From: Bdellovibrionales bacterium | GTDB taxonomy: Bacteria; Bdellovibrionota; Bdellovibrionia; Bdellovibrionales; UBA1609 | DNA: 58,644 nt | Assembly: GCA_013216195.1 (NCBI GenBank) | Contig: JABSOQ010000005.1 | Span: 1-58,644 of the forward strand | Reading direction: 5' to 3' | Shown: positions 22,931-51,928 of the stretch, in pieces | Numbering within the stretch: the first letter of the stretch is position 1 | How the letters are laid out: each line of letters opens with the position of its first letter | Notes under the pieces: generated by a model | Told to the model about the DNA's origin: nothing | Databases searched by the model: none | The model's input: the letters and a program-made list of their open reading frames with translations, nothing else | Position numbers and translations under genes: made by a program

Positions 22931-23133
22931 GCTCTTCTCGCTTATCTGTCTTCATTCGTTTTTTACTTTGCTGCTTTGATTTTCTCTTGTCTTTTCAGCA
23001 CCTTACAGCCCCTCGAGAAGACAATAGACCACCGTTCTTAAAAGTCATTACCAGCTAGTTTCACCTGTCATTTCAATACTTTAGGCGACTTTTCTGCTTA
23101 AGACTTAAGATCACACAGCGTTACAAGGCGCTG

Positions 23134-23163
23134 AGTATGCACAAACGTGATCTGCTTTGTCAA
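23134..23163 (-). promoter_or_regulatory. Candidate sigma70-type promoter of the S10 operon
   Basis: The minus strand reads TTGACA (23163-23158), an 18-nt spacer, then CATACT (23139-23134). This would give a leader of about 195 nt before rpsJ. By-eye match only. Confidence 0.3.
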
Positions 23164-23381
23164 ACCGGAAAGAAAAGAATATCCGAATTGGCCGAACTTC
23201 GTCTGAATCTATAGTTCGCCAACCCCATTGGGTTTTAGAGAAGCCTCATCGACCCGCAAACTCGAAGTGCATCTTATATATAGATGCAGCAAAGGTCATG
23301 TTTTGTCCCTTAGCTGTAATCTCTTCAGAGCTTCAAGAGGTCCGGGTCCGTTGATTTTTGTCTCGCAGATCTCTAAGCTGA

Positions 23382-24206
23382 TTGAGAGGGCTTGTGGAGA
23401 AAATTGTGAGAGATTCTGAACACATAAAGACTGTCGCCGATACCTGGCAAGAGCACTGGAAGAATTCAGACATGGCACCAGACTCCAGCCGGCAGGGCAG
23501 GTTTCTTCGCTGGTATATCTCGAAATTTGGGGGCTTTGCCATAAACCGACTGGTTTTGACTGTGCTCGAGAAGCAACTCGGCTCACCTAAAGGCAAATCG
23601 ATCTTAGATGCTGGCTGTGGCACTGGGCTCAACTCACTCCCCTTAGCAGCCCGAGGCGCTGAGGTCACTCTACTCGATATTGCTCCTGAGGCTCTGAACA
23701 TTGCCGAGACCTACTACCAAGAGCTCGAGTTAAAGGCCAACTATGTCTCTGGCTCAATCTTTGAGATGCCCTTTGAAGATGGCGAGTTCGACCTCGTCTG
23801 GAACACTGGGGTCATCGAACATTTTGAGCCTCGAGAAAGAAAGCAAGCGGTCAGTGAGATGCTTCGGGTGATGAAGCCAGGTGGCTTTATGATCACATTC
23901 AATCCGAACGCCTCTGCCCCAGTTTACCAAAGAGCCAAGGCCAAAGCTGAAGCCAGAGGCACCTGGGATGTTGGCTTTGAACTCCCCATTGAGACCTTGA
24001 GCGCAGATGTGAGCCCCGATGAGTACGAAGTCACAGAGTGGTCTCTTGGTTGGTTCTTTCAGTATCAGTTTTATAAGTATTTGATTCCATCAGCACTTAA
24101 AATACCTTTCGTGGCGACCCATGAAGTGACCCAAAGCCTACTGCCTTTTCTGAATCGGCCAGAAGGCTACTTTTTGGTCTCTCTGATTCGCAAAAAGCAG
24201 AAATAA
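23382..24206 (+). CDS. Class I SAM-dependent methyltransferase
   Basis: Motif I ILDAGCGTGLNSLPLAARGAEVTLLDI, then FDLVWNTGVIEHF and MKPGGFMI. The start is uncertain: TTG at 23382, or GTG at 23406 which follows GGAGA. Confidence 0.8.
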   Translation: MRGLVEKIVRDSEHIKTVADTWQEHWKNSDMAPDSSRQGRFLRWYISKFGGFAINRLVLTVLEKQLGSPKGKSILDAGCGTGLNSLPLAARGAEVTLLDIAPEALNIAETYYQELELKANYVSGSIFEMPFEDGEFDLVWNTGVIEHFEPRERKQAVSEMLRVMKPGGFMITFNPNASAPVYQRAKAKAEARGTWDVGFELPIETLSADVSPDEYEVTEWSLGWFFQYQFYKYLIPSALKIPFVATHEVTQSLLPFLNRPEGYFLVSLIRKKQK

Positions 24207-24294
24207 AGGGCTTATGGAAGAAAAGTATCTCATAGGGCCAAATGGCTCGTTTTGGTTATTCGATAAGTGTTTCAGGGAGTGAGACCAAGAACTG

Positions 24295-25332
24295 ATGGCA
24301 AATGACATCACAATGCAGATTCCAATCTACCATTCACCTCAGTCTGTGGCGCCGCTGCTAGATTCGCTGAAGAGCTCAGGCCTAGCCGATCACTTGAGCA
24401 AGATACTATTTGTTAACGATGCCTCTACCGACAACACACTTGAAGTGTTGCAAGATCAGAAATCAACTCATGCACTCGCTGAAAAGATCGAGATTATCAA
24501 TTTGCCCAACAATATGGGCCGCTACTACGTTAACGTTGAGGGTGTAAAGGCTTTTGATACTCAACACTTGATCCTGACAAACTGCCGCGCGCAGTTTCAA
24601 CCCGGGTTTGAAAAAGTCATTGCAGAGATCACTCTGCGGCCAGGACTATACAGCGGAAGCTTATTCATAGACACCAACCAAAGCATCTACAATCTGCATT
24701 GGGAAAGGCTTCACCGGCTGATTTACAAGCACATTTTTGAGGCCTATGAAAATGGCCCGTTTCAAATCACCGAAAACAACATGGCAAGCTACTTAATCGG
24801 GGCAACCGTTTACCTCTGCCCCACTGAGGCGTACCGAAAGACAACCAAGCTGATGCCACCAGGCGATGTCAAAGGCGACGACACAACCTTCTTGAAAAAT
24901 ATGATGCAAGTTTGCCCAGTCTTTCTAGATGGCCGCTTGGCCATCAAATGGGAGCCGAGACAATCGCTTTGGTCTTACGTTTATCATTTCTATGAGCGCA
25001 GCCCCAACTTCGTCGAGTATCATGTGCTCACCAAGAGAACATTTCTTTTTGGGCCCTTCTTGCTCGGACTAATTGTTAGCCTCACCACTCTAGCAGCATT
25101 AGCTCTTTCACCGAAGCTTGGGGCACTCATTATAGCAACTGAGGTCGTAGCCATTGCAGCCTCAACTCTACTTATCGCAAAATCTCCAATTGAATTTGTG
25201 AAAATGGTTTGGCTACACACAGCCTGCATTCTGTTTTTTGGGTTCGGAGTTTTGATCGCCTTCACCACCCAGTCGGCAACTCGGCTGTTCACAACCGCCC
25301 CCTCTCACACAAAAGAGGAGCCCCATGAGTAA
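24295..25332 (+). CDS. Family 2 glycosyltransferase with C-terminal membrane helices
   Basis: IPIYHSPQSV...ILFVNDASTDNTLEVL matches the GT2 N-terminal pattern (IPxYN ... DDGSTD). Hydrophobic C-terminus FLLGLIVSLTTLAALAL... Confidence 0.7.
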   Translation: MANDITMQIPIYHSPQSVAPLLDSLKSSGLADHLSKILFVNDASTDNTLEVLQDQKSTHALAEKIEIINLPNNMGRYYVNVEGVKAFDTQHLILTNCRAQFQPGFEKVIAEITLRPGLYSGSLFIDTNQSIYNLHWERLHRLIYKHIFEAYENGPFQITENNMASYLIGATVYLCPTEAYRKTTKLMPPGDVKGDDTTFLKNMMQVCPVFLDGRLAIKWEPRQSLWSYVYHFYERSPNFVEYHVLTKRTFLFGPFLLGLIVSLTTLAALALSPKLGALIIATEVVAIAASTLLIAKSPIEFVKMVWLHTACILFFGFGVLIAFTTQSATRLFTTAPSHTKEEPHE

Positions 25333-26347
25333 ATTGAACAACCTCGGTGAAAACCTAATCTTTATTTTCGGCATACCTAGGTCAGGCACCACGCTGTTGC
25401 AGCTGATGCTTTCGGCACACAGCCGAGTCTCGACGCTACCAGAGCACTCGCTCACTCTACCGATTAAATATCTCGGGTACTACGCGACACCCGTTCAGGC
25501 CCATTACCCTATCTCAATTACCTCACTTGGCATTCAAGAACTAGTTAAACAGTTACCTCAGGGCGAGGAGGATTACCTTGAAGCTCTTAGAGCTTACTGC
25601 AACACGCTTTACGAAAAAAGCCTGTCTCGTGACGAGAAAGCCGACCTCTTGCTTGATAAGACTTTTTACTTTCACTGGAGGTTTCTAACGAAACTCTACC
25701 CGAAAGCAAAGTATATCGTTTTGTCTCGAAACCCACTTGCCATACTCGACTCTATCTCCAGCTCGTTTTTTGCCGGCAGCTACAAAGAGACCGTTCGTAC
25801 CGGTAAAGACATTCAAAATGACTTGCCTATTCTAGCCGACTTTTTGAATCAAAACGATGTGGCCTCTCTTCACGTGAGATACGAAGACCTTGTCACAAGC
25901 CCTGAGGCCGAGGCCTCTCGCATATTGAAGTTTGCGGGAATCGATTTCGAGAATGGCGTTGTGAATTACGGAGACAGCGTAGAGAAAGAGTTTCGCCTAG
26001 GTGACCCCATTCAAGCCTTTAAGGCTAAGGCTCCAAATACCGAGTCTTTAGATCGCTGGAAAAATGAACTGACAGCGAACCCACAAAAGGTCATTTACGC
26101 AAACGAGCTCTTAAGCGAGCTCTCAAAAGAAGACGTGAAAACCTTTGGGTACGACCTCTCTGAGCTAAAACAAGAGCTCTCGGCAATCAAAGGTGCTCGC
26201 AGTTGGTTTCGCTTCGAAAGCCGACTTCTTCGTGTTCGGCCCTGGGTGTGGATAGTTCTTTTGAAACTCATGAAACTCTCGAGCTTTAAGTCACTCATTA
26301 AAGCCATGCGCTACTACTCGACACTGTTGCTCGAGAAAGACATTTAA
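25325..26347 (+). CDS. Sulfotransferase family protein
   Basis: PAPS 5-prime phosphosulfate-binding loop IFGIPRSGTTLLQLML. 3-prime phosphate-binding-like segment YIVLSRNPLAILDS. Overlaps the GT2 gene by 8 nt. Confidence 0.7.
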   Translation: MSKLNNLGENLIFIFGIPRSGTTLLQLMLSAHSRVSTLPEHSLTLPIKYLGYYATPVQAHYPISITSLGIQELVKQLPQGEEDYLEALRAYCNTLYEKSLSRDEKADLLLDKTFYFHWRFLTKLYPKAKYIVLSRNPLAILDSISSSFFAGSYKETVRTGKDIQNDLPILADFLNQNDVASLHVRYEDLVTSPEAEASRILKFAGIDFENGVVNYGDSVEKEFRLGDPIQAFKAKAPNTESLDRWKNELTANPQKVIYANELLSELSKEDVKTFGYDLSELKQELSAIKGARSWFRFESRLLRVRPWVWIVLLKLMKLSSFKSLIKAMRYYSTLLLEKDI

Positions 26348-26372: not shown

Positions 26373-27233
26373 TCAGATCTTGCAGGTCGCGTAGAGCTCA
26401 GCACAGTTTTCGCCAAACTGATCTGACAACTTGAAATACCCCTCGAGAACCTCTTCATCAAACTCGAGCATTTGCGAGTTAGATAAAGGCTTAACGAATG
26501 AGCCCGAGAGGTGGTTCAACTTCAACCCAGAGTCTTGAATGTGATCTTTGAGCATGTCCTGGTCGTAGACTCTTAGGTGGCCAACATTTTGATCCCGTTC
26601 GGTCAATTCATCAGCCACAGCAATCATCCCCATAGCCACTCCGAGCAATCGATGCAAAGACTTGGCATTGGGAACAACAATATGCACCACTCCATCTGGC
26701 TTTAACCAATTCACACACGATTTCAGTAATGCCACTGGCTCTTGCATGTGCTCAAGGACCCTAGCCAAAATGATGTTGTCAAACTTAGTCTCAGTTTCGA
26801 AGTTCTCAAAAAGACAGCCGTGACAGGTCACGTTTGAGAATTTACCTTCAATGAGGTCGAGATTTTTTTGATTGCCTTCAACAACTGTAACCGAATCAAA
26901 AAAACTGGCCAGTTGTTCGGTCATCAAACCCTCTGAACTACCAAGCTCTAGACAAGTGCCTTTATTCGACTTTTCTTGAATTCGGCGCCAGCTGTATTCA
27001 ATTAGGTAGCGATCGAAGTCTTGTCTACTGTCATAAAACTCAGCAGCTTTATCGACTCTGCCTTGTATATCTGTTGAATCTCCCACCCCAACTACCTCTC
27101 TGGTGCTACCTGTATCATAGTACAGGTAGCCAAAACTCACATGCAAAACCTCAAACAATGACTCGCCTTTGGTCAACTTTTCGGCAGATAGATAACAGGT
27201 CCAGCAAGCTGTTTGTCGAAAACTCCTTAACAC
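26373..27233 (-). CDS. Class I SAM-dependent methyltransferase
   Basis: CLELGSSEGLMTEQLA...VTVVEGN (motif I-like) and LKPDGVVHIVVPN. The start may instead be GTG at 27086 (GAGAGG 9 nt upstream), giving 237 aa. The track maximum is 27233. Confidence 0.7.
   Translation of the reverse strand: MLRSFRQTACWTCYLSAEKLTKGESLFEVLHVSFGYLYYDTGSTREVVGVGDSTDIQGRVDKAAEFYDSRQDFDRYLIEYSWRRIQEKSNKGTCLELGSSEGLMTEQLASFFDSVTVVEGNQKNLDLIEGKFSNVTCHGCLFENFETETKFDNIILARVLEHMQEPVALLKSCVNWLKPDGVVHIVVPNAKSLHRLLGVAMGMIAVADELTERDQNVGHLRVYDQDMLKDHIQDSGLKLNHLSGSFVKPLSNSQMLEFDEEVLEGYFKLSDQFGENCAELYATCKI
27105..27130. promoter_or_regulatory. Perfect 10-bp inverted repeat in the divergent region between the methyltransferase and dehydrogenase genes
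   Basis: GCTACCTGTA tcatag TACAGGTAGC. It lies 19 nt upstream of the alternative GTG start (27086) of the minus-strand methyltransferase. It could be an operator or a 5-prime UTR stem-loop. Confidence 0.3.
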
Positions 27234-27324
27234 TAGCCCTGGGTAAGCAGCATTTCTCGTCTTAGACTGATAAACTAAAAAGGTGAGCTCGAGCTTAATT
27301 CGGGGCTTTTCAGGGAGTGAACAG

Positions 27325-28371
27325 ATGGTAAAGATGGGTTTGATTGGCTACGGTTATTGGGGCAAAAACTTGCTACGTAACATGATGTCGAGTCAAAAGA
27401 TTGAGGTCGTAGGAGTTATCGATAACGACCCCAACCATCGAAGCCTAGCTCAGCACACTTACCCTGGCTTGAAAACTTACAACTCTGTCGAAGAATTAAC
27501 ACAGGCAGAGGAGCTAGAAGCCATGGTAATCGCCACCCCTCCCGCCTCACATAAACACGTCGCTGTAGAATGCTTAGAGAAGGGCTTGCATGTTCTCGTC
27601 GAAAAACCCCTAGCACTGTCTACTGAGGAGTGTGTCGAGATTTTGCAAACAGCTGAAAAGGTCGGCAAAAACGTAATGGTCGACCACACTTTTGTTTACA
27701 ACTCCCCGGTGATTCACTTGCAAGAGCAGATCAACAAAGGGGAACTTGGCGATTTGTTGTATTACGATTCTGTACGAGTCAATTTAGGTGGCTTTCAACC
27801 TCAAGTGAATGTGCTCTGGGATCTTGCACCTCACGATCTCAGTATTGTGCATTTTTGGTCTGGTGGCAAAATGCCAGAAATGGTTCAAGCAACGGGCATA
27901 AAACACTTCGGCTCGTCGACAGAAAACATGTGCTACGTGAATATGAAGTACAATGACAGCTTCAACGCTCACCTGCACCTCAATTGGGCAGCGCCATTCA
28001 AGAGCCGTCAAGTTATCATAGCTGGCGACAAAAAGATGGCTGTCTATGATGACACCCAACCCATGGAAAAAATCAAAATCTACGACAAAACCGTGCAACT
28101 GGATCAAGCAGACGACACTGACTTTCGCGTCAACTACCGAGTCGGCTCAATGTTTGCGCCTGCAATAAAAAACAAAGAGGCCCTACTCGCAATGGTCGAG
28201 GAGTTCGCAGCTAGTATAACTGAGAAAAGACAACCACTCACCGACGGCATAGCTGGTGCTCAGGTGGTGCAGATACTAGAGGCGCTGTCAAAGAGCTTGG
28301 CAAATGATGGTAGACCTGTCGACATTCAAAACCGCTTTGACACCCAAAATTGGGTCGCAAAAACAGCCTAG
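27325..28371 (+). CDS. Gfo/Idh/MocA-family NAD-dependent sugar dehydrogenase (WbpB/GnnA-like)
   Basis: Rossmann motif KMGLIGYGYWGKNLL and the family-typical EKPLALSTEE. ATG at 27325 follows AGGGAG. Confidence 0.8.
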   Translation: MVKMGLIGYGYWGKNLLRNMMSSQKIEVVGVIDNDPNHRSLAQHTYPGLKTYNSVEELTQAEELEAMVIATPPASHKHVAVECLEKGLHVLVEKPLALSTEECVEILQTAEKVGKNVMVDHTFVYNSPVIHLQEQINKGELGDLLYYDSVRVNLGGFQPQVNVLWDLAPHDLSIVHFWSGGKMPEMVQATGIKHFGSSTENMCYVNMKYNDSFNAHLHLNWAAPFKSRQVIIAGDKKMAVYDDTQPMEKIKIYDKTVQLDQADDTDFRVNYRVGSMFAPAIKNKEALLAMVEEFAASITEKRQPLTDGIAGAQVVQILEALSKSLANDGRPVDIQNRFDTQNWVAKTA

Positions 28372-28392: not shown

Positions 28393-29499
28393 CTAGAAGA
28401 ACTTCTTGATTGAATCAGCTACGTGCTGTTGCTGCTCTTCTGTGATTTCTGGAAACATTGGCAAAGAGAGAATTTGATGACTCAATTTCTCGGTCAGAGG
28501 GTAGGCTCCCTCTGAATAGCCTAGATTATTGTAGGCACCCTGAAGATGCCATGGCGTCGGATAGTGAATACCTGCCCCGACCCCGCACTCCTGCAAGTGT
28601 TTCTGAAGCTCATCTCGCTTCTCTGTTCGAATCACATAGAGATGAAACACATGCTGATTATCACCTGGAATATTCGGCAGTTGAATGCCCTCAATCCCCT
28701 CTAACAATTTGTGATATCTCTCAGCGGCTGCCTGCCGCCCCTCACTGAAAGCTTTGAGATTGCGCAACTTAATACGCAAGATCGCCGCTTGCATTGAATC
28801 CATACGAGAGTTGAAGCCTAAAATAGGATGGTGATACTTTTTTGGAGACCCATAGTTTCTGATCGACATAATTTTGTCTTTAAGCTCTTCATTATCAGTA
28901 ACCATCACACCAGCGTCTCCGAACGCCCCCAAGTTCTTACCTGGAAACAAACTGTAGCAGCCAATATCTCCAAAAGTACCGGTGCATTTACCGTTCCAGT
29001 GAGAGCCATGGCTCTGTGATGCATCTTCAATCACGATCAAGTTGTGCTTTTTCGCTAGTGACATCACCTCTTCCATGTTTTCGCTTCGGCCGTAGAGGTG
29101 AACTGGGCAGATTGCACGTGTCTTTGATGTGATGGCACTCTCGACTTTGTTGAGGTCCATCAAAAACGTGCTCTCATCAACTTCAACTGGCACAGGCACT
29201 CCACCAGCCATGGTCACACCAATCGGAGTCGCCACAAAAGTATGAGCTGGCACGATCACCTCTTCACCGGGCTTCAGATCAATAGCCCTGTAAGCGATAT
29301 GCAAAGCATCTGTACCGCTGCCTACTCCAACGCCATATTTGGCACCGACAAACTCTGCAAATTCTGACTCAAAAGCGCTAACAGCGGGGCCCAGCACAAA
29401 CTGGCAACTGTCTACGATAGACTCTACGGCTTGCATGATCTCAGTCTTCATTTTTTGCGTCTGATTAGGAAGATCTACGAATGGCACTTTCATGGGCAA
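28393..29499 (-). CDS. DegT/DnrJ/EryC1/StrS-family PLP-dependent sugar aminotransferase
   Basis: GSGTDALHIAYRA and YSLFPGKNLGAFGDAGVMVT (PLP lysine context). 368 aa. RBS GGAGG. Confidence 0.9.
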   Translation of the reverse strand: MPMKVPFVDLPNQTQKMKTEIMQAVESIVDSCQFVLGPAVSAFESEFAEFVGAKYGVGVGSGTDALHIAYRAIDLKPGEEVIVPAHTFVATPIGVTMAGGVPVPVEVDESTFLMDLNKVESAITSKTRAICPVHLYGRSENMEEVMSLAKKHNLIVIEDASQSHGSHWNGKCTGTFGDIGCYSLFPGKNLGAFGDAGVMVTDNEELKDKIMSIRNYGSPKKYHHPILGFNSRMDSMQAAILRIKLRNLKAFSEGRQAAAERYHKLLEGIEGIQLPNIPGDNQHVFHLYVIRTEKRDELQKHLQECGVGAGIHYPTPWHLQGAYNNLGYSEGAYPLTEKLSHQILSLPMFPEITEEQQQHVADSIKKFF

Positions 29500-29634: not shown

Positions 29635-30675
29635 ATGAGTCGACCCTTCCATGTGCTGATCACTGGCTCTGGCACCGTAACTTGTCAAAGCGTGATTAAG
29701 GCACTGAAAAATCAAAATCAAATCGATGTGCAAATCACAACTGTAGATATGAATGAGGATGCTGCTGGCAAGTTCTTAAGCGACTCTTTTCATATCGTGC
29801 CTGCTGCCAAAGACCCTAATTTTATTGTGAGAATGCTTGAGATTTGCTCTGCAGAAAAAGTTGATCTCGTTATACCTATAGTGGACTACGAGTTTACAGC
29901 CTTTGCTAAGCATCGTGAAGAGTTTGAAGAACAAGGCACCAAAGTGGCTATTTCGAGCCTAGAGACCATTGAGAACTGTAACGACAAATGGAAAACCAAC
30001 CAGTTCTTCAAAAGAATCGGAGTCGAGACTCCACAAAGCTATTTGCCAGAGTCATTACCATCGCAGCCTAGCTTTCCATTGTTTATCAAGCCGCAAGTTA
30101 TGGGCCGCTCCTCCATCGACTCTTTTAGGGTTAATAACGAAAACGAACTCTCGTTCTACCTTGAAAAGGTCGACAGACCCATCATTCAAGAGTGCTTTGA
30201 GGCTGAAGAGTTCACCGTGGATGTGCTCTGTGATTTCGACAGCAAAGCAGTAAATGCTGTACCAAGGCTTCGCATTGAAACCAAATCTGGAGTCTCTTAC
30301 AAAGGCAAAACGGTTCGAGATCAGTTACTCATTGAGCAGGCAGCTCAGATCGCAGAAGAGTTAAAGATCGTAGGCCCCTGCAACATTCAGTGCTTTCGCC
30401 TTAAAGACAAAGCGGTATTTTTTGAGGTGAATCCTAGATACTCGGGCACTCTTGCTCTCACTGTGGCCGCTGGCTTTAATAGCCCGGTTAAACTTTGCCA
30501 ACTCGCGCGCGGCGATAAAGTTGACATTAGCCTCGGCGACTTTCAGGACGGCGTCTTAATGCTCCGGTACTGGCAAGAGGTGTTCTCAAGCTCGACTCAT
30601 AATGAAGGCTACACAATGCTGTCAGGAATCGAACAAAGGCCACGACCAGAGGCTTTGAACTCAAAACCCAAATAA
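29635..30675 (+). CDS. ATP-grasp enzyme
   Basis: FPLFIKPQVMGRSS, IIQECFEAEEFTVDVLCD and FFEVNPRYSGTLAL match the ATP-grasp layout (E-x-N-P-R). RBS GAGAGGA. Confidence 0.7.
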   Translation: MSRPFHVLITGSGTVTCQSVIKALKNQNQIDVQITTVDMNEDAAGKFLSDSFHIVPAAKDPNFIVRMLEICSAEKVDLVIPIVDYEFTAFAKHREEFEEQGTKVAISSLETIENCNDKWKTNQFFKRIGVETPQSYLPESLPSQPSFPLFIKPQVMGRSSIDSFRVNNENELSFYLEKVDRPIIQECFEAEEFTVDVLCDFDSKAVNAVPRLRIETKSGVSYKGKTVRDQLLIEQAAQIAEELKIVGPCNIQCFRLKDKAVFFEVNPRYSGTLALTVAAGFNSPVKLCQLARGDKVDISLGDFQDGVLMLRYWQEVFSSSTHNEGYTMLSGIEQRPRPEALNSKPK

Positions 30676-30697: not shown

Positions 30698-31699
30698 ATG
30701 TCATTTGCTGGAAAAAAAATATTTGTTACTGGTGGTGCTGGGTTTATCGGCAGCCACATTGTCGAATCGCTAGTGAAAGCCGGGGCGACTGTGAAGGTCT
30801 ACGACAATTTCTCAAGCGGAAAGCGTGAGAACCTAGCCCCGTTCAAAGATGACATCGAGATTGTTGAGGGTGACATTCTAAACAAAGACCAACTCTCGGC
30901 CGCTATGAAAGGCTGCGACTGGGTTTCTCATCAGGCGGCACAGCTCGAGATCACGACTTGTGTCGAAGACCCTCTTTTTGATCTCAGGGTAAACACTGAA
31001 GGAACCTTGAATGTGTTCGACTCTGCACTAGAAAACAACGTGTCTCGAGTTGTGAGTGCTTCTTCAGCATGCGTATACGGCCAAGCTCGGTACGTACCTG
31101 AAGACGAAGACCACCCTCAGGTACCTAACTGGGCTTATGGCGTCAGCAAGCTTGCCGCAGAGAGATACGGTCTTGTTTACTCGAACACACACGATCTCCC
31201 TATATATAGCCTTCGCTACGCTATCGTGTACGGAGAAAGAGAATGGTACGGCAGAGTTCTCACCATCTTTTTGAAAAGGCTCCTCAAAGGTGAGCCTCCC
31301 GTTGTGTTTGGCGAAGGTGCTCAAGAGCGTGACTTCACCTATGTTGGAGACGCAGTCTCTTTGCACAATTCGTGCTTCGAAACAGAAGCTGCACCCACCT
31401 CCTTCAATGTTTCAACTGGCATTGGCACTTCGATCAAACAGCTCGCCCAGGAAATCATGCAAGTGCAAGATCTCGGAAAAGACATTCTGTTTGAAGATGT
31501 CAAGGTTGGTGAACACTCTCAACTGGTAGAGCAAAATAGGCAGCGACTACCTGAAGAGCTCGAGAAAATGATACTCTCAAACGAGAAAGCCCAGAAGCTT
31601 CTCAACTGGTCTCCAAAAATGAACCTCGCTGATGGGCTCAAGAGAGAGTTTGCTTGGCTGCAGCAAAACCCTAACTTTTGGGATAAAATGAGCTACTAA
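30698..31699 (+). CDS. NAD-dependent epimerase/dehydratase (extended SDR)
   Basis: KIFVTGGAGFIGSHIV and catalytic YGVSKLAAE (YxxxK). Confidence 0.85.
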   Translation: MSFAGKKIFVTGGAGFIGSHIVESLVKAGATVKVYDNFSSGKRENLAPFKDDIEIVEGDILNKDQLSAAMKGCDWVSHQAAQLEITTCVEDPLFDLRVNTEGTLNVFDSALENNVSRVVSASSACVYGQARYVPEDEDHPQVPNWAYGVSKLAAERYGLVYSNTHDLPIYSLRYAIVYGEREWYGRVLTIFLKRLLKGEPPVVFGEGAQERDFTYVGDAVSLHNSCFETEAAPTSFNVSTGIGTSIKQLAQEIMQVQDLGKDILFEDVKVGEHSQLVEQNRQRLPEELEKMILSNEKAQKLLNWSPKMNLADGLKREFAWLQQNPNFWDKMSY

Positions 31700-38555: not shown

Positions 38556-38663
38556 CAGAGCAAATCTTCAGGAGTTGGTCGAGCCAAAAAATAGTCATTG
38601 CGGCTCGCAATACGTGCGTTTAGCCTAATTGGGTCTCAATTTACTTCTCTAGAAAGGATTCTT

Positions 38664-40296: not shown

Positions 40297-40298
40297 CT

Positions 40299-45167: not shown

Positions 45168-45468
45168 TTCTATAGCGATTAAGTTCGTTAACCAGTCCTC
45201 ATCAGGGTTTGACTCGCTAGATATTGAAAAGGGATCAGCATTGGTCGATAAACTCGATGCCACCAACTCGCCTATATTATTTGGTTGCCGTACTGGCATA
45301 TGTGGCACTTGTGCCATTCGAGTGCACAATCCTGAAAACTGTCGTCCGCAAACTCAAGTAGAGAGAGACTTTTTTGAATCCGTTGGTCTCGAGCAAGAAA
45401 CCGACCTGAGGCTAAGTTGTCAGCTTTCCGCTGAACACGACTTAAGCGTAGAGAAAGTGAGAGTTTGA
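45160..45468 (+). CDS. Plant-type [2Fe-2S] ferredoxin
   Basis: GCRTGICGTCAIRV ... LSCQL gives the CxxxxCxxC...C pattern. 102 aa. Overlaps both neighbours, by 8 nt and 4 nt. Confidence 0.8.
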   Translation: MPDSIAIKFVNQSSSGFDSLDIEKGSALVDKLDATNSPILFGCRTGICGTCAIRVHNPENCRPQTQVERDFFESVGLEQETDLRLSCQLSAEHDLSVEKVRV

Positions 45469-46487
45469 TGAGCCTCGACAAAAACCTCGATCTATTTTGG
45501 TGGGTGGCCGCTGAAAGTCATGAGCTCCAAAATAAACCTTTAGCAAGAAAAATCTTAGACAAAGACATTGTCTTGTTTCGAGGTGAGGACGGTCACCCGG
45601 TAGCCCTCAAAGATCAATGCATTCATCGGGGGGCGGCACTATCCTCCGGCACTATCCAAAAAGGTCAACTCACCTGCCCTTACCATGGCTGGAGATACAA
45701 TCAGTCAGGAGATGTGACCTGGATCCCTTCTGAAGGACGGGCACCAAAAGGCCGACGATGCCAACGGGAGTATCAAGCTATAGAGCAAGATGGATTTGTC
45801 TACGTTCGGTTTTCACAGAAAAAGACAAACGCTCAACCCTTTCCAATGCCCCACTACAAAGACAAAGGTTACAGCTCCATTCGGCTACAAAACTTGTTCG
45901 AAGCCGAATTGTTGAATTGCGTAGAAAACTTTATCGACATACCCCACACGACATTTGTGCATCCCAATATCTTTCGAAACGAGTCTGGCTGTGAGACTAA
46001 AACAAAAATAACAAAGAGAACAGGCCATGTTCACATTGAATACTTCAATGAGAATTCTGATTTCGGATGGTTCTCCTGGTTTCTAAACCCTAAGAAAATT
46101 CCAGTGGTGCACACTGACGAGTACTTTGGCCCAAATATCACAACTGTTAACTACTACGTCGAAAAAGGCCACTTCATAATCACTTCACAAAGTGTACCTA
46201 TCGACGAGGACCATACACTCGTTTACACCGACCTTACCTACAACTACGGTATTTGGAATTACTTTTGTCGTCCAATTGTTAGATCTCAAAGCCAAAAGGT
46301 GATTGACCAAGATGTTATCATTCTAAAAAACCAACATCAGACTCTCAAAAGAAACCCTATGCGCTTTCAGAACTCAGATTGTGATCTGATACACCTCGCT
46401 GTTGATCAAACCTACCACGAGCTTGTTGACCCAAAAAATGCACCAACAAATGAAGAGAAAGTGACGGAATGCAGTTTTTGGATCTAG
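45465..46487 (+). CDS. Rieske [2Fe-2S] non-haem iron oxygenase, canonical-type (paralog 4)
   Basis: CIHRGAALSSGTIQKGQLTCPYHGWRY and NFIDIPHTTFVH. Confidence 0.85.
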   Translation: MMSLDKNLDLFWWVAAESHELQNKPLARKILDKDIVLFRGEDGHPVALKDQCIHRGAALSSGTIQKGQLTCPYHGWRYNQSGDVTWIPSEGRAPKGRRCQREYQAIEQDGFVYVRFSQKKTNAQPFPMPHYKDKGYSSIRLQNLFEAELLNCVENFIDIPHTTFVHPNIFRNESGCETKTKITKRTGHVHIEYFNENSDFGWFSWFLNPKKIPVVHTDEYFGPNITTVNYYVEKGHFIITSQSVPIDEDHTLVYTDLTYNYGIWNYFCRPIVRSQSQKVIDQDVIILKNQHQTLKRNPMRFQNSDCDLIHLAVDQTYHELVDPKNAPTNEEKVTECSFWI

Positions 46488-47266
46488 CAAGCGCTCCAGA
46501 TGTCGCCATCACCTTTTTAGGGTTCTGGTCTCTGATGATTCTGAGCGCGTCTAAGATCAAGATGGCCTCGAGCCTTCGAAATCGATGGGATTGGATCATC
46601 GACAGCTTTGGCCTTCTGGCTCAAGGCCTGCTCGTGCCACTGTTTGCCTCTATGGCGCTACAACCTGTTATCAAAATGCTAGCACCCAACACGATTGGTG
46701 CCCTGAATTGGGGTTCTTGGGCTTGTTTTTTTCTACCCCTAACCCTAGTTGATTACCTCTACTACTGGAACCATCGCATTCTTCACAGGCCAAAGCTTTG
46801 GCCAATTCACAGGCTGCACCACTCAGCAAGAAGTATGGACATTCTGATCACTTCGCGCAACTCACTCTTCACACCCTTGTTCATTGTGTACATTTGGGTA
46901 CACCCTGTTTTCTTGGTTGCCCTCGAAAACTGGCATGCCTATCTACTGGGAGTAGCTGCCTCATCTGTTCTTGATCTTTGGCGCCACTCAGCTCTTTCAA
47001 CACCTGATTTTCTTAAAAATCTCAATTGGCTGATTGTATTACCTGAAGACCACAGCTTTCATCACAGTAGTGAAAGCGAGGGCTTCAACTATGGTGCAAA
47101 TCTGAGCCTATGGGACCGCATCCACAGCACCTACAAGCCTCGGCAATTTCATCCAAAAGAAATCGGAGAACAGTTGCAAAGCGAAGAGCTAAAACACCTG
47201 TTCTTCTCTCCTTGGAAACCACGACCACCTATGCCTTCAACACCTAGAGCTACGGAGCCATCATGA
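46469..47266 (+). CDS. Fatty acid hydroxylase / sterol desaturase superfamily membrane di-iron enzyme
   Basis: Histidine boxes WNHRILH, HRLHH and HSFHH within a polytopic protein. Confidence 0.75.
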   Translation: MQFLDLASAPDVAITFLGFWSLMILSASKIKMASSLRNRWDWIIDSFGLLAQGLLVPLFASMALQPVIKMLAPNTIGALNWGSWACFFLPLTLVDYLYYWNHRILHRPKLWPIHRLHHSARSMDILITSRNSLFTPLFIVYIWVHPVFLVALENWHAYLLGVAASSVLDLWRHSALSTPDFLKNLNWLIVLPEDHSFHHSSESEGFNYGANLSLWDRIHSTYKPRQFHPKEIGEQLQSEELKHLFFSPWKPRPPMPSTPRATEPS

Positions 47267-47874
47267 CATTAGCTGGTAGGCTTATCTCTTTGTTTCCAGC
47301 GTTGTACCTTGTAATTGAGTTAGCTCTTTTAGCCTTTGGAATTCACTATGAAAGGCCCGTACTACTTGTAGCAGGGCTCTTACACCTTTACCTCACTCCC
47401 CTAGCCCTATTTAAGATCCATGAGATTTTGTTTCCACTAAGTGATGGAGACTATGATCTCTCAGCCAAAAGCTACAACCCTTGGTGGACCTCCTACATGT
47501 TGCAATATCCCTTTATTGCCCTACCAGGGCTCGAGGCCTTACTAAGATTTGTGCCTGGCCTTTTCACTCTTTGGATTCGAGCCTGGGGTGGGAAGATCGG
47601 CAAAAATGTACTGTGGACGCCTCGGGTAGAGATTGTTGACCGTTCGATGATCGAAATAGGAGATCATGTGGTGATCGGTCATATGTCTATATTTTGTAGC
47701 CACGCGATCACTTCAATCAACGGCAAGCCCATCCTTAGACTAAAAACAATTCGAGTGGGAGAGAGAAGCCTGATCGGGGGAGACAGCCAACTGGGGCCAG
47801 GGTCATTAGTAGAGGCCGGAACAATGTTGCCCGCTAAGACTCGATTGTACTGGAACGGAGTGCTGCCGACATGA
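47263..47874 (+). CDS. Membrane-anchored left-handed beta-helix (hexapeptide) acyltransferase-like protein
   Basis: Hydrophobic N-terminal half. The C-terminal half has hexapeptide-like IEIGDHVVIGHMSIF ... VGERSLIGGDSQLGPGSLVEAG. Confidence 0.5.
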   Translation: MTLAGRLISLFPALYLVIELALLAFGIHYERPVLLVAGLLHLYLTPLALFKIHEILFPLSDGDYDLSAKSYNPWWTSYMLQYPFIALPGLEALLRFVPGLFTLWIRAWGGKIGKNVLWTPRVEIVDRSMIEIGDHVVIGHMSIFCSHAITSINGKPILRLKTIRVGERSLIGGDSQLGPGSLVEAGTMLPAKTRLYWNGVLPT

Positions 47875-49304
47875 GCTTGCTGTTTCAAGCTGCAAAGTGG
47901 TCTATGCGAGCCGCCTCTAGAAGCCGATACAACAGGTTTTTAGAAAGCCTGAACGAGCCCAAGCAAGCCCAACAAGAAACTCTTAAAAGTATTCTAGCTC
48001 TCACGAAACAGCAAAAACTACCTAGCTCTCTGACCGTTTATTCAGACTACCCTTCGGGCACCTCATGGAACCTTGAAACAGTTCAACACTTCGAGCCAAC
48101 ATCTGGCTCAAGTGGCAAGGGTAAAAAGTGGATCCCCTACACTCAGTCTTTGCTGAATTCGTTTCAGTCGATGTTCAAAATTTGGAGCTACGATGTCTTA
48201 AGTTCTGGCATAGAGCTAAAATCAGGCAAGACCTTTATTTCGATCTCACCTCCTCAAAAGAATCAATCGAATGACGACACTGAGTATCTGGGCTCTACAC
48301 TCCGCTACATCACGGGTAGGTTCTTAGTTGCACAAGACTTAGTAGGTACGGACTCACACGACTTCTTCAACCAAGTTGCAAGACAGCTCGCCCAAGCTGA
48401 AGACCTTGAGATCATTTCAGTCTGGAGCCCATCTTACCTGAGCTCTCTCATGAAAACTATCGCATCTGAATGCGATGCCTACTCAATGACAAGAGTTCGA
48501 AGACAACTTGCTCGGTCTCGGAACTGGTCAGCACTCTGGCCATCTCTGAAGTTCGTCTCAGCTTGGGGGTCAGCAAATTCAAAAACACCATTTGAACAAA
48601 TAGCAGCTCTATTCCCACAAGTTCATTTTCAAAAAAAAGGGCTGTTAAGCACAGAAGCACCCGTTACGGTTCCTCTCTTTCAATCAGACACTGGAGCTCT
48701 CCCTCTCTGGTTAGATGTCTACCTAGAAGTTCTAGATCAACACGGAGACATCAGGCCCCTATACAGCATAAAGGAAGGCGAAAAGGCTGAGGTCCTTATC
48801 ACGAGCTTTGGTGGACTCAAAAGATACCAACTGGGTGATCAGGTCGTTTGCACAACAAGACTTGGCAATTCGCCAGTGGTTGAGTTTATTGGGAGAAAAG
48901 CTGAAATCTCCGACCTGGTTGGAGAAAAGATTGAAAGCACTTGGCTCACCGAAGAACTCTCACATCTTCATGGAGACTGGCTGGTGCTGCCAATTCAAAG
49001 CCGTAACCAGAACCCCTCTTACTATCAGCTACTTCACTCTGAAAAATCGGGCACAGACTTTGAGTCTGCATTGAAAGGTAGCTATCACTATCAACTTGCT
49101 AGGGATCAAAATCAACTCTCATCTGCAAAGCAGTTGAGAGTTCCTAATCTGATAGAACTTAAGCAAAGCTTTTTTGAAAGACATGGAATCAGCAGGGGTG
49201 ATATCAAAGACTCGCGTCTGCTGACGGACCCTGTTTTGGCAAATGAATTTGTTCAGTACCTAGACTTACCAAATTTGCCATTTCAGACTCAGCTAAAACC
49301 TTAA
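47871..49304 (+). CDS. GH3-family adenylate-forming (acyl acid amido synthetase-like) enzyme
   Basis: FEPTSGSSGKGKKWIPYT resembles the GH3 P-loop-like (S/T)SGTT..K.IP. The N-terminal RFLESLNEPKQAQQETLKSIL fits the family N-terminus. 477 aa. Confidence 0.55.
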   Translation: MSLLFQAAKWSMRAASRSRYNRFLESLNEPKQAQQETLKSILALTKQQKLPSSLTVYSDYPSGTSWNLETVQHFEPTSGSSGKGKKWIPYTQSLLNSFQSMFKIWSYDVLSSGIELKSGKTFISISPPQKNQSNDDTEYLGSTLRYITGRFLVAQDLVGTDSHDFFNQVARQLAQAEDLEIISVWSPSYLSSLMKTIASECDAYSMTRVRRQLARSRNWSALWPSLKFVSAWGSANSKTPFEQIAALFPQVHFQKKGLLSTEAPVTVPLFQSDTGALPLWLDVYLEVLDQHGDIRPLYSIKEGEKAEVLITSFGGLKRYQLGDQVVCTTRLGNSPVVEFIGRKAEISDLVGEKIESTWLTEELSHLHGDWLVLPIQSRNQNPSYYQLLHSEKSGTDFESALKGSYHYQLARDQNQLSSAKQLRVPNLIELKQSFFERHGISRGDIKDSRLLTDPVLANEFVQYLDLPNLPFQTQLKP

Positions 49305-50160
49305 ACATACCTTCTCGCTGCCAAGCCTCAACAACACTAGGTTGAACCACTTTAGACACCAATCTCTTGAACACATTCATTTTGAATTCGGCTCTTTCCA
49401 CGGCTTCAACCTCTCTTAAAAACTTTTGAAGCTCAGCACGCCCCAACTGAGAGTCTGCCGAAAATACGGTTTGGGCCAACTGCAGCGGGCCAATCGCTAT
49501 AGACTGAGCCATTGTCGTCAGTGTTTGGTACACGAAGCTCGATTCAAAGAGATCGCGATCAGTTAGCTTGTCTTTTTCAATCATGGCCAAGCCACCAGAA
49601 TGGTGCTTGGCCTCGTCTTTAAGAATCTCAACAAATACTTTCTTGAGTGCTTCGTGATTGCAGTTTTTTTGAAGCTCCTGATAGTAATGAAGGCCCCAAC
49701 CCTCAAGTGTGGTCTGCACAAGAATTAAACCTTCAAAGAAGTTTGCCTTCTTTACGATCCCTGAGACGAACTGAGAGAACTCAGACTCAAGCTGTCCGTC
49801 AATTTCAGATACAAATGGGCAGATCATCTCAAAGTGCCTAGATTCTTGAGAGGCGAACTCGCAAAACACCTGGCGCTGATCAATGTTTTGACTCAGCAAC
49901 CCCATCTTATTGGCGTAGGCCATTCCGGCCATTTCGATATGCAAGGTCTCTTTTAGCAAGCCCTCTGACAACTCTGCATGAATGCGGCCTCTGACATCTT
50001 GAGAAAGTCCGTTCCACACTTCAGAGTTTGCGATACCAAAAAACTCCTCAGAAAACAGAGTTTCACCATCGGGCGATTTCCTTTCCGGGTAGCCCTTAAG
50101 CTTTTGTAGTGTCTCGTGAGATAGGCTATCTTTTTCTGGCAATACCACATTGTATTTCAT
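49204..50160 (-). CDS. Ferritin-like di-iron carboxylate protein
   Basis: Ordered ligand set HIEMAG, SQESRH, TLEGWG and KDEAKH (E, ExxH, E, ExxH). Confidence 0.6.
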   Translation of the reverse strand: MKYNVVLPEKDSLSHETLQKLKGYPERKSPDGETLFSEEFFGIANSEVWNGLSQDVRGRIHAELSEGLLKETLHIEMAGMAYANKMGLLSQNIDQRQVFCEFASQESRHFEMICPFVSEIDGQLESEFSQFVSGIVKKANFFEGLILVQTTLEGWGLHYYQELQKNCNHEALKKVFVEILKDEAKHHSGGLAMIEKDKLTDRDLFESSFVYQTLTTMAQSIAIGPLQLAQTVFSADSQLGRAELQKFLREVEAVERAEFKMNVFKRLVSKVVQPSVVEAWQREGMFKVLAESEMANLVSLGTEQIHLPKQGPSADASL

Positions 50161-51008
50161 ACTGACGAGCCCTCAACTGCAGACATCATATTACTTGCAG
50201 TTTTCTGCATGAGAGAGTCGTAAACTGCTTCTGGCAAAAAGCGCTTTAAAAACCAACCCAAACGAGCATCTTTACCTACAGTAACTGACTTTCTCCTATT
50301 GCCCTCGATGAGCTGAACAATCTTGTGCACGACCTCCATCTTGTCTGGTGGGTTCGGCCTGCTACTGAGCTTCTTTTGAAACTGCTTTAGGCCGCGTACT
50401 TGCTGGAGATATACGTCTTCTTTCAACCCCTCTTCAAAAATCGCATTTTCCAAAAAATTAGTACGGTAGCCTCCCGGTCGCACCGAAAAAACATCGACAC
50501 CATGAGGCTTTAACTCAAGAGCAAGCGATTGAGTGAAGCCTTCAACAGCAAACTTCGAAGCGCAATAAACTGATGTCAATGGAAAGCCCATAAAACCAAA
50601 TGCACTCGACACATTCACGATCTTGCCTTTCGATGTTCTCAAGGCTGGCAACAGCTCCCTTGTCAGCTTCATCAAACCCACTAGATTGGTGTTGATAAGT
50701 CTCTCCATCGCCTCATCTGTCACTTCTTCTAAAGGGCCAAAGTGCCCAAGCCCAGCATTGTTAACTAAGCAATCGAGTGTCTTGTGTTCGAAGAATTCTT
50801 TAACTTGGGCGATTTGAGAGGGCTCATTCACATCGAGATCTATTAACTGGAGCCGCGCCCTCAGATCTTCAGAGATCGAAGCAAAGATCTTGCTTCGAGA
50901 ACAAATACTCCTGCCTGTTGCTACCACCTCGTAGTCTTTTTGCAAAAGCTCCTCAACTAAAGAGAGGCCAAACCCAGAGGTCGCACCAGTAATTAAAACT
51001 GTCTTCAT
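50157..51008 (-). CDS. Short-chain dehydrogenase/reductase
   Basis: VLITGATSGFGLS, NNAG and YCASKFAVEG. The MKTV start ATG at 51008 overlaps the upstream stop as ATGA. The track ORF extends to 51095. Confidence 0.85.
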   Translation of the reverse strand: MKTVLITGATSGFGLSLVEELLQKDYEVVATGRSICSRSKIFASISEDLRARLQLIDLDVNEPSQIAQVKEFFEHKTLDCLVNNAGLGHFGPLEEVTDEAMERLINTNLVGLMKLTRELLPALRTSKGKIVNVSSAFGFMGFPLTSVYCASKFAVEGFTQSLALELKPHGVDVFSVRPGGYRTNFLENAIFEEGLKEDVYLQQVRGLKQFQKKLSSRPNPPDKMEVVHKIVQLIEGNRRKSVTVGKDARLGWFLKRFLPEAVYDSLMQKTASNMMSAVEGSSV

Positions 51009-51829
51009 TTTTCTACTTTCTTTTTCAGCAGACTTTTCAAAAGCTTTTTCATTGAATATTTCAGAGGCATAAACAGAGTCATTTTCGCGATACAACAGAG
51101 CTCCTGCCCGTCTTGCCAGTTCGGGTTGCTCTGTTGAAAGAAGGCGATACGAGGGTTCTTTAAAAACTTCTCTTTTACGCAGGCGACGTCCGGCTTCAGT
51201 TGGCAGCTCAGACCCTTGGGCACAATTCTCATCGACTCATGATCAAAAGTCTCTTTGAACCTTTGGCTGTAAAACTCATGCATCAACTGCTGATGAAAAA
51301 GGTCTGTAGGCTTCTCATAACGAGGAAAATGAGTATCGAAATTATTTGCCATCAAAAGGTAGGTTTTGTAGCCCTTTGAAATCAAAAACCAGTAAAGTGG
51401 CTGAAATGGCCTCTTGATCTTGAGCTTCCAGAGGTGCTGCAGAAAGGCGATACCCAGCTGCGGTGAGCCCCAATATTGCTCACTCAGAACAGTGTCACCA
51501 CTGTAAACCCCGGTGTAACTCACGCCATCGTTTTCACTCTCAATCTCGAGAATAGTTGAAAAGCCCTGAAGAGTTTTGTGCTTTTTCTCCATCAAGAGAA
51601 TCACTTTGGTCTTTTCAAATAGATCTTTTATAAATTGATCTCGCGGATGATTGTCGTAGTATTCAGCAAACAGCTGAAACATTCTCTCAACCTGTAGAGA
51701 TGTTAAGTCTTCCACATCAACGACTTGCGAGAACAAACTTTCACGTCTGAGCTTTTTTCGAGGCTTTGATTGTACCCGAGGCTCTGCTCGAACATCCCTT
51801 GCTGCTTTTTGGTTTGGGACCACTTCCAT
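51005..51829 (-). CDS. Hypothetical protein (possible GNAT-like acyltransferase)
   Basis: 274 aa with a strong RBS (GAGGGGG). No firm motif. It is the first gene downstream of fusA on the same strand. Confidence 0.45.
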   Translation of the reverse strand: MEVVPNQKAARDVRAEPRVQSKPRKKLRRESLFSQVVDVEDLTSLQVERMFQLFAEYYDNHPRDQFIKDLFEKTKVILLMEKKHKTLQGFSTILEIESENDGVSYTGVYSGDTVLSEQYWGSPQLGIAFLQHLWKLKIKRPFQPLYWFLISKGYKTYLLMANNFDTHFPRYEKPTDLFHQQLMHEFYSQRFKETFDHESMRIVPKGLSCQLKPDVACVKEKFLKNPRIAFFQQSNPNWQDGQELCCIAKMTLFMPLKYSMKKLLKSLLKKKVEK

Positions 51830-51928
51830 GTCACCCCCTCTTCAGTTACTCAGTTTCCGAGTTCACCCAAAGAGAGGCAAGTCTGATTTTCATTAACAAA
51901 GCAGTGCATTCCAGACCTTGGTCTAATG

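Follow-up and report, generated by a model that had tools for sequence, protein, structure and literature searches.

The window that we analysed is a stretch of 58,644 nt from a Bdellovibrionales bacterium (UBA1609; assembly GCA_013216195.1, contig JABSOQ010000005.1, positions 1-58,644, forward strand), and in it the str and S10 ribosomal operons are separated by about 29 kb of non-ribosomal DNA. The sequence is metagenome-derived and belongs to an uncultured member of the Bdellovibrionota, and its closest named relatives by elongation factor G (EF-G, the product of fusA) are also Bdellovibrionota (Pseudobdellovibrionaceae and Bdellovibrio, 64-68% identity). It is probable, in our judgement, that the separation goes back to an old composite insertion between the two operons, fixed in a lineage in which tuf was never at this site.

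The end of fusA at 51929 and the start of rpsJ at 22930, both on the minus strand, had been reported by a first-pass annotation made from the sequence alone, and the Pfam calls for EF-G and Ribosomal_S10 confirm them. The fusA open reading frame (ORF; 51929..54070, minus strand) has all of the Pfam domains of EF-G, and its true start is probably the ATG at 54016. On the other side, the genes of the S10-spc-alpha block continue uninterrupted from rpsJ down to 9684 in the ORF list. Both operons thus retain their ancestral order and orientation, with the non-ribosomal genes between them. These are accessory genes, as had been stated, although we count 27 ORFs rather than 28 coding sequences (at least 100 aa, both strands); they tile 23382-51829 on both strands with short gaps. 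Protein families were assigned with Pfam, NCBIfam and PHROG, tRNA genes were sought with ARAGORN, and structured RNAs with Rfam at gathering thresholds.

Comparison with relatives places the break within one clade. The fusA-rpsJ junction is intact in four of them, L090, L092, L094 and L007. Their fusA identities to the window are 70%, 68% and 64% for the first three; L094 is of the B. bacteriovorus type, with a fusA product identical to one named B. bacteriovorus, and L007 is a metagenome-assembled genome (MAG) of the Pseudobdellovibrionaceae, the only useful relative from a scan of genome contigs with fusA that returned mostly other phyla (53-57% identity). All four have the order rpoB-rpoC-rpsL-rpsG-fusA, a spacer of about 210-270 nt, and then rpsJ-rplC onward. 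By contrast, non-ribosomal DNA lies right after fusA in all four relatives with fusA identities of 74-93%: L087 (93%), L088 (77%), P0005 (74%) and L089 (74%). In the last of these, referred to below as the 74% relative (L089/L095), a single 40.5 kb contig has the fusA end at 3449 and the rpsJ start at 19203 in the same orientation, giving an insert of 15.7 kb. In a neighbour-joining tree of fusA, one clade unites the window with all of the split relatives in 200 of 200 bootstraps and leaves out the intact ones; by parsimony, this would correspond to a single ancestral insertion followed by changes of content. A further contig of 2.08 Mb, L097 (JGI 3300071271, Ga0612058_0011), has an rpsJ 98% identical to that of the window and 85% nucleotide identity over the ribosomal operon. 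Upstream of rpsJ its gene order is that of the window over the stretch that starts with the first methyltransferase and ends with the HAD gene, where nucleotide identity is 70-74%. Another 23 contigs were reported as similar places to L097. The first-pass annotation was therefore right that the two operons have been separated by an insertion, since their order and orientation are kept and they are contiguous in the outgroups, and that it may be old or lineage-fixed, since the split is confined to one clade (fusA identity at least 74%) and the glycan module described below is collinear in the diverged L097. Its treatment of the 29 kb as one unit does not hold; there are two modules with different histories.

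The absence of tuf has a different explanation from the one first offered, that tuf was expected between fusA and rpsJ and had been displaced by the insertion or rearrangement. There is indeed no EF-Tu domain among the 27 ORFs (Pfam), and a six-frame tblastn search of the window with E. coli TufA gave the G domain of fusA as its sole match, with no tuf remnant at E<=10; nor was EF-Tu found in the 11 relative loci searched. In this lineage, tuf would be expected in a tRNA-tuf-secE-nusG-rplKAJL block, and the fetched flanks end short of the secE-nusG region. However, rpsJ follows fusA directly, without tuf, in all four relatives with an intact junction, so the absence of tuf predates the insertion. 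Movement of tuf away from this site is extremely improbable. It has in its favour that tufA follows fusA in many bacteria, including E. coli, and that the window has no tuf, but the 210-270 nt spacers of the four outgroups hold the putative S10 promoter and no tuf, and not even a remnant is found in the window. Since tuf does not belong to the Bdellovibrionota str operon, its absence here is uninformative on rearrangement, and this corrected expectation for annotation is the main value of the present analysis.

The two edges of the insert and the genes next to them are as follows. Proteins of the window without a family are named by length (unk274, unk280, unk553, unk122 and the CylC-like unk399).

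22613..22930, minus strand: rpsJ (S10), first gene of the S10-spc-alpha block; an identical protein is annotated Ribosomal_S10 on 7 metagenome contigs.
22931..23200, minus strand: retained ancestral fusA-rpsJ spacer with an S10 promoter-like site and a leader of about 200 nt; aligns with the spacers of L090, L092 and L007.
23201..23381, no strand assigned: spacer without conservation, at the edge of the insert that faces rpsJ; no alignment to the relatives' spacers.
51830..51928, minus strand: 99-nt spacer from fusA to unk274; no intrinsic-terminator-like site on the minus strand in a terminator scan.
51929..54016, minus strand: fusA (EF-G); Pfam EF-G domains.
54131..54992, minus strand: rpsG (54131-54604) and rpsL (54618-54992); ORFs and translations, with syntenic S7 and S12 Pfam calls in relatives.

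The fusA-rpsJ spacers of outgroups with an intact junction can be aligned with the last 270 nt or so before rpsJ in the window. This segment contains TTGACA-18-CATACT at 23163..23134 on the minus strand, and the -35 element, the -10 element and the CTTGTAAC that follows are invariant in the spacer alignment. A promoter scan gives the same site in the window, in L090 (46 nt past the fusA stop) and in L092 (68 nt past it), and the nucleotide homology of L097 upstream of rpsJ extends up to 23178. Because this site is conserved both in the window and in the intact spacers, the S10 operon appears to have its own promoter, and the insert sits between the fusA stop and this retained, predicted promoter. 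The leader from the promoter-like site to the rpsJ ATG (22931-23133, minus strand, about 200 nt) has conserved blocks common to the relatives, CTTGTAAC, TCTTAAGTCTTAA and AAGTCGC. No S10 or other ribosomal-protein leader was found by Rfam anywhere in the window, and RNAalifold gave no consensus structure for seven rpsJ leaders, whose alignment was poor. To judge from the conserved blocks, the segment could be a ribosomal-protein leader that has not been described.

We propose that the ancestral str operon had no tuf and that the order was rpoBC-rpsL-rpsG-fusA, a spacer of about 210-270 nt, and then rpsJ followed by the remainder of S10-spc-alpha. In the ancestor of the sub-clade with fusA at least 74% identical, non-ribosomal genes would have been inserted between the fusA stop and the S10 promoter, which in the intact relatives lies 46-68 nt from that stop. 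The zone between an upstream stop codon and a downstream promoter is where insertions between concatenated operons can be neutral (Brandis et al., PMC6735719). An insertion upstream of the S10 promoter would leave both transcription units working, so that fixation would be possible without the machinery of a mobile element. The site would later have accumulated and exchanged cargo: on the rpsJ side, a module for surface glycan or modified amino sugar, common to the clade with divergence, and on the fusA side, in the lineage of the window, a 16 kb Rieske/CylC lipid-tailoring cluster that was most likely acquired separately.

The glycan module occupies 23.4-35.4 kb.

23382..24206, plus strand: S-adenosylmethionine (SAM) methyltransferase; Pfam Methyltransf_25/11; 83% identical in L097.
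24295..25332, plus strand: family-2 glycosyltransferase (GT2) with a C-terminal membrane region; Pfam Glycos_transf_2; 66% identical in L097, 28% in L089/L095.
25325..26347, plus strand: sulfotransferase; Pfam Sulfotransfer_3; weak NoeE-like match.
26373..27233, minus strand: SAM methyltransferase (NodS-like); Pfam Methyltransf_23/NodS; 70% identical in L097.
27283..28371, plus strand: Gfo/Idh/MocA oxidoreductase, sugar-nucleotide 3-dehydrogenase-like; Pfam; 87% identical in L097.
28393..29499, minus strand: DegT/PseC-type sugar aminotransferase; Pfam DegT_DnrJ_EryC1, E 1.7e-116; 82% identical in L097.
29635..30675, plus strand: ATP-grasp ligase (PRK12767, carbamoyl-phosphate-synthase-like); Pfam ATP-grasp_3/PylC-like_N; NCBIfam NF009402, 220 bits vs cutoff 218.
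30698..31699, plus strand: NAD-dependent sugar epimerase / 4,6-dehydratase; Pfam Epimerase; LegB-like below cutoff; 88% identical in L097.
31699..32322, plus strand: HAD phosphatase; Pfam HAD_2; present in L097.
32366..34231, minus strand: 621-aa polytopic membrane protein; no family at E<=0.001; faint YfhO/DUF6077 resemblance.
34228..35445, minus strand: 405-aa polytopic membrane protein; no family match; 35% tblastn match in L095.

The start of the first methyltransferase is probably 23406; it is called as 266 aa on the independent metagenome contigs L001 and L002. The top NCBIfam match of the Gfo/Idh/MocA protein is UDP-GlcNAc 3-dehydrogenase, and the aminotransferase is PseC-like in NCBIfam, both below cutoff. 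A GnnA/GnnB function (lipid A GlcN3N) is conceivable for this dehydrogenase-aminotransferase pair. The 621-aa membrane protein is 36% identical over 613 aa to a 633-aa protein that adjoins the GT2 gene in the 74% relative; it is possibly a GT-C-type transferase or a polymerase, and the 405-aa protein would be flippase-like. From these family assignments, the module would make a modified amino sugar, in putative individual steps, and attach it to an acceptor in the envelope. In the 74% relative, the complete 15.7 kb insert likewise forms a sugar module, whose genes are of the SIS, GHMP kinase, NTP-transferase, epimerase, GT2 and methyltransferase types. Just four homologs, including the 621-aa protein, are common to it and the window, at 28-36% identity. 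Thus, the glycan gene content differs among relatives at one site, with the window and L097 collinear and the 74% relative carrying a different set. As a separate observation, the sulfotransferase of L097 (6015-7048) is in two ORFs of 170 and 174 aa, probably by a frameshift or as a pseudogene, and the other genes of the module there are intact.

The second module, at 35.6-51.8 kb, has four Rieske oxygenases and a CylC-family protein.

35586..36728, minus strand: Rieske oxygenase 1 (KshA/SdmA-like Rieske domain); Pfam Rieske.
36637..37479, minus strand: unk280, 280 aa, no family, conserved cluster member; 31% homologs adjoining Rieske oxygenase 2 in L102 and L106.
37473..38555, minus strand: Rieske oxygenase 2; Pfam Rieske; homologs in L102 and L106.
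38598..40259, plus strand: unk553, 553 aa, no family; homologs of about 30% identity at the same position in L098, L101, L105 and L106.
40299..42389, minus strand: 696-aa membrane transporter of RND/HAE3 type (HpnN-like); weak NCBIfam HpnN/HAE3 match; homologs in L106 and L108.
42617..43669, plus strand: Rieske oxygenase 3; Pfam Rieske; top PDB matches KshA, SxtT/SxtDIOX and DdmC.
43639..44007, plus strand: unk122, 122-aa membrane protein; Pfam Mpo1-like, E 0.0033, below cutoff; homologs in L100, L106 and L108.
43968..45167, plus strand: unk399, CylC-family dimetal-carboxylate (AurF-like) protein, signature gene of the cluster; from homolog annotation.
45160..45468, plus strand: 2Fe-2S ferredoxin; Pfam Fer2.
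45465..46487, plus strand: Rieske oxygenase 4 (VanA_C-type catalytic domain); Pfam Rieske and VanA_C.
46469..47266, plus strand: membrane di-iron enzyme of the fatty-acid hydroxylase / sterol-desaturase family; Pfam FA_hydroxylase, E 1.5e-24; weak OlsE-like match.
47263..47874, plus strand: hexapeptide-repeat acyltransferase, N-terminal hydrophobic region read from the sequence; Pfam Hexapep below cutoff; weak NCBIfam WcaF/HpsU-like match.
47871..49304, plus strand: GH3-family adenylating enzyme, acyl-acid amido synthetase-like; Pfam GH3 and GH3_M; PDB matches JAR1 and GH3.x.
49204..50160, minus strand: ferritin/rubrerythrin-like di-iron protein; Pfam Rubrerythrin, 25.8 bits vs cutoff 22.8.
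50157..51095, minus strand: short-chain dehydrogenase (SDR), likely start 51008, overlapping the upstream stop; Pfam adh_short; NCBIfam SDR subfamily matches.
51005..51829, minus strand: unk274, 274 aa, conserved cluster member directly downstream of fusA on the same strand; homologs in the loci described below.

The signature protein, unk399, has more than 1,100 homologs, and all among the matches listed carry PF28091, some also PF11583 (AurF). Homologs named AurF occur in MAGs of Bdellovibrionota and Bacteriovoracia and in Nostocales. Its identity is 49-54% to Nostocales proteins and 53-59% to those of other Bdellovibrionota, and this near equality suggests transfer of the Rieske/CylC cluster between phyla. 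A 406-aa homolog from Nostoc sp. CENA543, 51% identical, agrees in organism and length with CP023278.1:c1270872-1269652, which the supplementary tables of PMC8406957 list as a cylC homolog; the CylC-family assignment runs through this Nostoc protein rather than through a direct comparison with CylC itself. With an AF2 model of unk399 (pLDDT 81.6), Foldseek gave matches that are all weak (best E = 0.03, TM 0.3-0.57); most are ferritin-like dimetal proteins, among them AurF (2jcd) and CmlI, a result consistent with, but not proof of, an AurF-like fold. With phmmer, neither unk399 nor unk274 has a relative in the PDB, and a profile of 24 unk399 homologs found none either. For unk274, there is also no match in Pfam, NCBIfam or PHROG, and the same three collections gave none for unk280 and unk553; the last is probably exported, given a hydrophobic N-terminal segment read from its sequence. 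No Pfam match to PP-binding (carrier protein) or AMP-binding/fatty acyl-AMP ligase (FAAL) domains was obtained in the interval, in which the adenylating enzyme is of the GH3 type. From its gene content, the cluster is possibly lipid-tailoring and halogenating. A sterol or hopanoid role was rejected: the SdmA match of Rieske oxygenase 1 in NCBIfam covers the Rieske domain only, at 70 bits vs a cutoff of 600, the HpnN match scores 30 vs 752, and both matches cover only generic domains.

Querying metagenomes with the CylC homolog gave 48 loci, the longest of which are collinear with the window at 25-58% amino-acid identity. Their common order is unk553, transporter, Rieske3, unk122, CylC homolog, ferredoxin, Rieske4, hydroxylase, acyltransferase, GH3, ferritin-like, SDR, unk274 and Rieske1. 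Homologs of unk274 inside the cluster are 31-54% identical across the loci and 46-54% in the closest collinear ones, where those of Rieske3 are 49-58% identical. The cluster of the window is rearranged: Rieske1 adjoins unk280, and fusA stands at the position after unk274, where a Rieske1 homolog ends the cluster in L098, L100, L105 and L106. In L106, the Rieske2-unk280 pair is in the opposite orientation. Neither fusA nor rpsJ lies within the fetched flanks of the other Rieske-cluster loci, and a literature search did not find this gene combination for Bdellovibrio. The complete 15.7 kb insert of the 74% relative lacks the cluster, and a collection of 5.8 billion proteins has no unk399 homolog above 59% identity except that of the window itself. 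We infer that this module arrived at the site independently, in the lineage of the window; no other part of our account is as weak, because L097 was seen only as far as the HAD gene.

The junctions themselves differ in how well they are corroborated, and this bears on whether the contig is a chimeric join of ribosomal sequence and unrelated DNA. On the rpsJ side, the junction is reproduced on L001 and L002, from other samples, at 99.7-99.9% nucleotide identity; at this edge L097 has about 1.1 kb holding two small ORFs. On the fusA side, the window and L087 are similar (82% nucleotide identity over rpsL-fusA) only as far as 51944, some 15 nt short of the fusA stop, and the 75-aa ORF after fusA in L087 shows no homology to unk274 (BLASTP E = 23; tblastx), so the fusA-proximal cargo is the labile side. 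A search for exact matches to the fusA protein, with either start codon, returned no contig, and the fusA-side junction is therefore without independent confirmation. This, the divergence of L087 at that point and the metagenomic origin of the sequence are what an assembly artefact would have to build on. Against it stand the independent contigs at the rpsJ side, the similar split in four relatives and L097, a composition that is uniform over both junctions, and the homology to L087 over nearly all of fusA up to its stop, as expected for a real gene boundary. We regard a chimera as highly improbable. It is also very unlikely that the whole 29 kb is a single island recently acquired by horizontal transfer. 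It is a large accessory block on both strands, and the occurrence of the Rieske/CylC cluster in distant phyla (Nostocales and Bdellovibrionota, at about 50-58% identity) fits a horizontal spread of that module. However, no integrase, transposase or phage match was found among the 27 ORFs in Pfam, NCBIfam or PHROG, ARAGORN found 0 tRNA genes, and no direct repeat has a copy at each junction, which is in keeping with the original statement that this is not a classical mobile island and lacks integrase, transposase, tRNA and flanking repeats. The compositional comparison that it had called for points the same way: the insert has a GC content of 0.454-0.469 vs 0.449-0.470 in the flanks, and correlates with the non-ribosomal flank of the window at r = 0.90-0.92 in tetranucleotides and r = 0.82-0.85 in relative synonymous codon usage, so that in composition and codon usage it is indistinguishable from that flank. 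The ribosomal genes deviate from the non-ribosomal flanks more than the insert does, as is expected of highly expressed genes. Moreover, a relative whose ribosomal genes have diverged to 85% nucleotide identity has the glycan half in collinear order, and the 74% relative has a different insert at the same junction.

What function, if any, does the position have? The site might be a functional hotspot at which the glycan and lipid clusters have their expression tied to growth rate, either by read-through from the strongly expressed str operon or by closeness to the ribosomal genes. The genes for unk274, SDR and the ferritin-like protein lie on the fusA strand with overlapping stops and starts, beginning 99 nt downstream of fusA, and the spacer, with no terminator-like site, folds into a hairpin that covers the ribosome-binding site and has no U-run. 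Read-through from fusA into these three genes is thus possible, and the clade repeatedly carries envelope-related genes at the site. However, most of the cargo is either encoded on the opposite strand or preceded by divergent spacers, the gene adjoining fusA is convergent in L088, P0005 and L089, and a neutral permissive site is a sufficient explanation (PMC6735719). We therefore consider coupling to growth rate unlikely. A related feature lies on the other side of fusA.

54075..54109, minus strand: terminator/attenuator-like 14-bp hairpin with a U-run between rpsG and fusA, from the terminator scan.

A hairpin and T-run occur at the same position with other stems in L087, L089 and L090 (GCACTC/GAGTGC, CCCACTC/GAGTGGG and GGCCA/TGGCC), and the differing stems at one position suggest conservation through compensatory change. 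The rpsG-fusA gap is just 9-34 nt in L092, L094 and L007. The predicted structure could act as an attenuator; alternatively, it could be the boundary of a transcription unit of fusA's own. It is conceivable, though we give it only a small chance, that the fusA-rpsJ spacer is a long-lived bay that exchanges envelope clusters, with fusA read-through tying the CylC/Rieske part to the expression of a translation factor and the hairpin bounding a unit of fusA plus cargo.

Several points weigh against the old composite insertion that we prefer. Just one relative's insert, that of the 74% relative, is fully sequenced; the contigs of L087, L088 and P0005 end before rpsJ, and for them a translocation rather than an insertion is possible. 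The exact fusA-unk274 junction is known from the window alone, and the sequence after the fusA stop in L087, its 93% relative, is unrelated; either the content on the fusA side is very labile or, less likely, the end of the window is mis-joined. The S10 promoter is a match by consensus and conservation, and so a predicted one. For the later arrival of the Rieske module, the evidence consists of one relative that lacks it and of a protein collection in which no unk399 homolog is closer than 59%.

The old composite insertion has precedents. The ribosomal supercluster is broken in various lineages by small multigene insertions without mobility genes, and in Salmonella bfd-bfr-hopD lie between str and S10 (PMC6735719). 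E. coli K-12 has 16.9 kb and 17 genes (gspB, gspA, gspC-O, bfr, bfd and chiA) between tufA and rpsJ, and tusBCD rather than rpoC upstream of rpsL. The split noted in the first-pass annotation is real, but its description as unusual is weakened by the 17-gene insert of E. coli K-12 and the cases in the literature (PMC6735719). The insert in the window (29 kb, 27 genes) resembles that of E. coli K-12 in placing non-ribosomal genes between the last str gene and rpsJ with order and orientation kept, in the absence of mobility genes, in its position upstream of the (here predicted) S10 promoter, and in the non-ancestral neighbours upstream of rpsL (TraB and VWA-like genes instead of tusBCD). It differs in phylum, in a str operon that ends with fusA and not tuf, and in cargo: glycan and CylC/Rieske genes whose content turns over within the clade, instead of a type II secretion system, chitinase and bacterioferritin. 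Compared with the canonical str operon, rpsL-rpsG-fusA-tuf, the order and orientation of rpsL-rpsG-fusA are alike, whereas tuf is absent here and in eight relatives and a terminator-like hairpin lies between rpsG and fusA.

Loci for O-antigen and capsule hold variable surface-polysaccharide genes between conserved housekeeping genes. By analogy, the glycan side of the insert is like them in its fixed site, with divergent but functionally alike gene sets in relatives, and in its apparent content of aminotransferase, dehydrogenase, epimerase, GT2, methyltransferases and polytopic membrane proteins. No Wzx, Wzy, Wzz or initiating transferase is recognisable in it, and its two polytopic membrane proteins (621 and 405 aa) have no significant family match, just the faint YfhO/DUF6077 resemblance. 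It differs in that only one glycosyltransferase was identified and in that its flanks are ribosomal.

The fusA-side module resembles the "Rieske-containing BGCs" (biosynthetic gene clusters) of Eusebio et al. 2021 (PMC8406957), in which 2-4 Rieske proteins occur with a protein of the sterol desaturase family and one CylC homolog but without a carrier protein. These are orphan clusters with no known product, and non-cyanobacterial homologs in the same contexts were noted (PMC8406957). The module has a single CylC-family protein, four Rieske proteins, a sterol-desaturase/fatty-acid-hydroxylase protein, an acyltransferase and a ferritin-like protein, no acyl carrier protein or FAAL, and is likewise orphan; at the level of predicted families, it fits each feature of such a cluster. 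The published set is a cyanobacterial survey, and the present module differs in its Bdellovibrionota host, its lodging next to fusA, the relocation of Rieske1, and the addition of the GH3-type adenylating enzyme, the RND/HpnN-like transporter and several family-less proteins. The locus is thus a further example of a known pattern, a str-S10 insertion in another phylum, each of whose modules is of a known type, and it does not overturn current understanding. It adds a non-proteobacterial case in which the ribosomal supercluster is broken by a non-mobile insertion just upstream of the next operon's promoter, and it extends the orphan Rieske/CylC cluster, previously described from cyanobacteria, to relatives of predatory bacteria, which may aid the search for the product.

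The supercluster is also broken at the other end of the str operon. Upstream of rpsL, rpoBC is missing from the window, and its place is taken by two other genes.

55251..58378, minus strand: TraB/GumN-family protein (340 aa) and a 706-aa VWA-like protein; Pfam TraB_PrgY_gumN; faint VWA_2 match.

In relatives with fusA identities of 64-77%, rpoC is upstream of rpsL-rpsG, those at 70-77% retain rpoB-rpoC-rpsL, and the replacement of rpoBC is a second, younger break. On the S10 side, the L3 protein encoded by rplC (21866-22597, minus strand) has an acidic N-terminal extension of about 35 aa that is rich in Gln, Ala and Glu; L3 is 243 aa long in the window and 250 aa in L097, compared with 220-234 aa in L090, L092, L094 and L095. 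Beyond the alpha operon, at 418-9159 on the plus strand, are five successive ORFs (819, 227, 473, 418 and 854 aa) with no NCBIfam match above noise, of which the 418-aa ORF gives faint CXXCH/cytochrome c signals.

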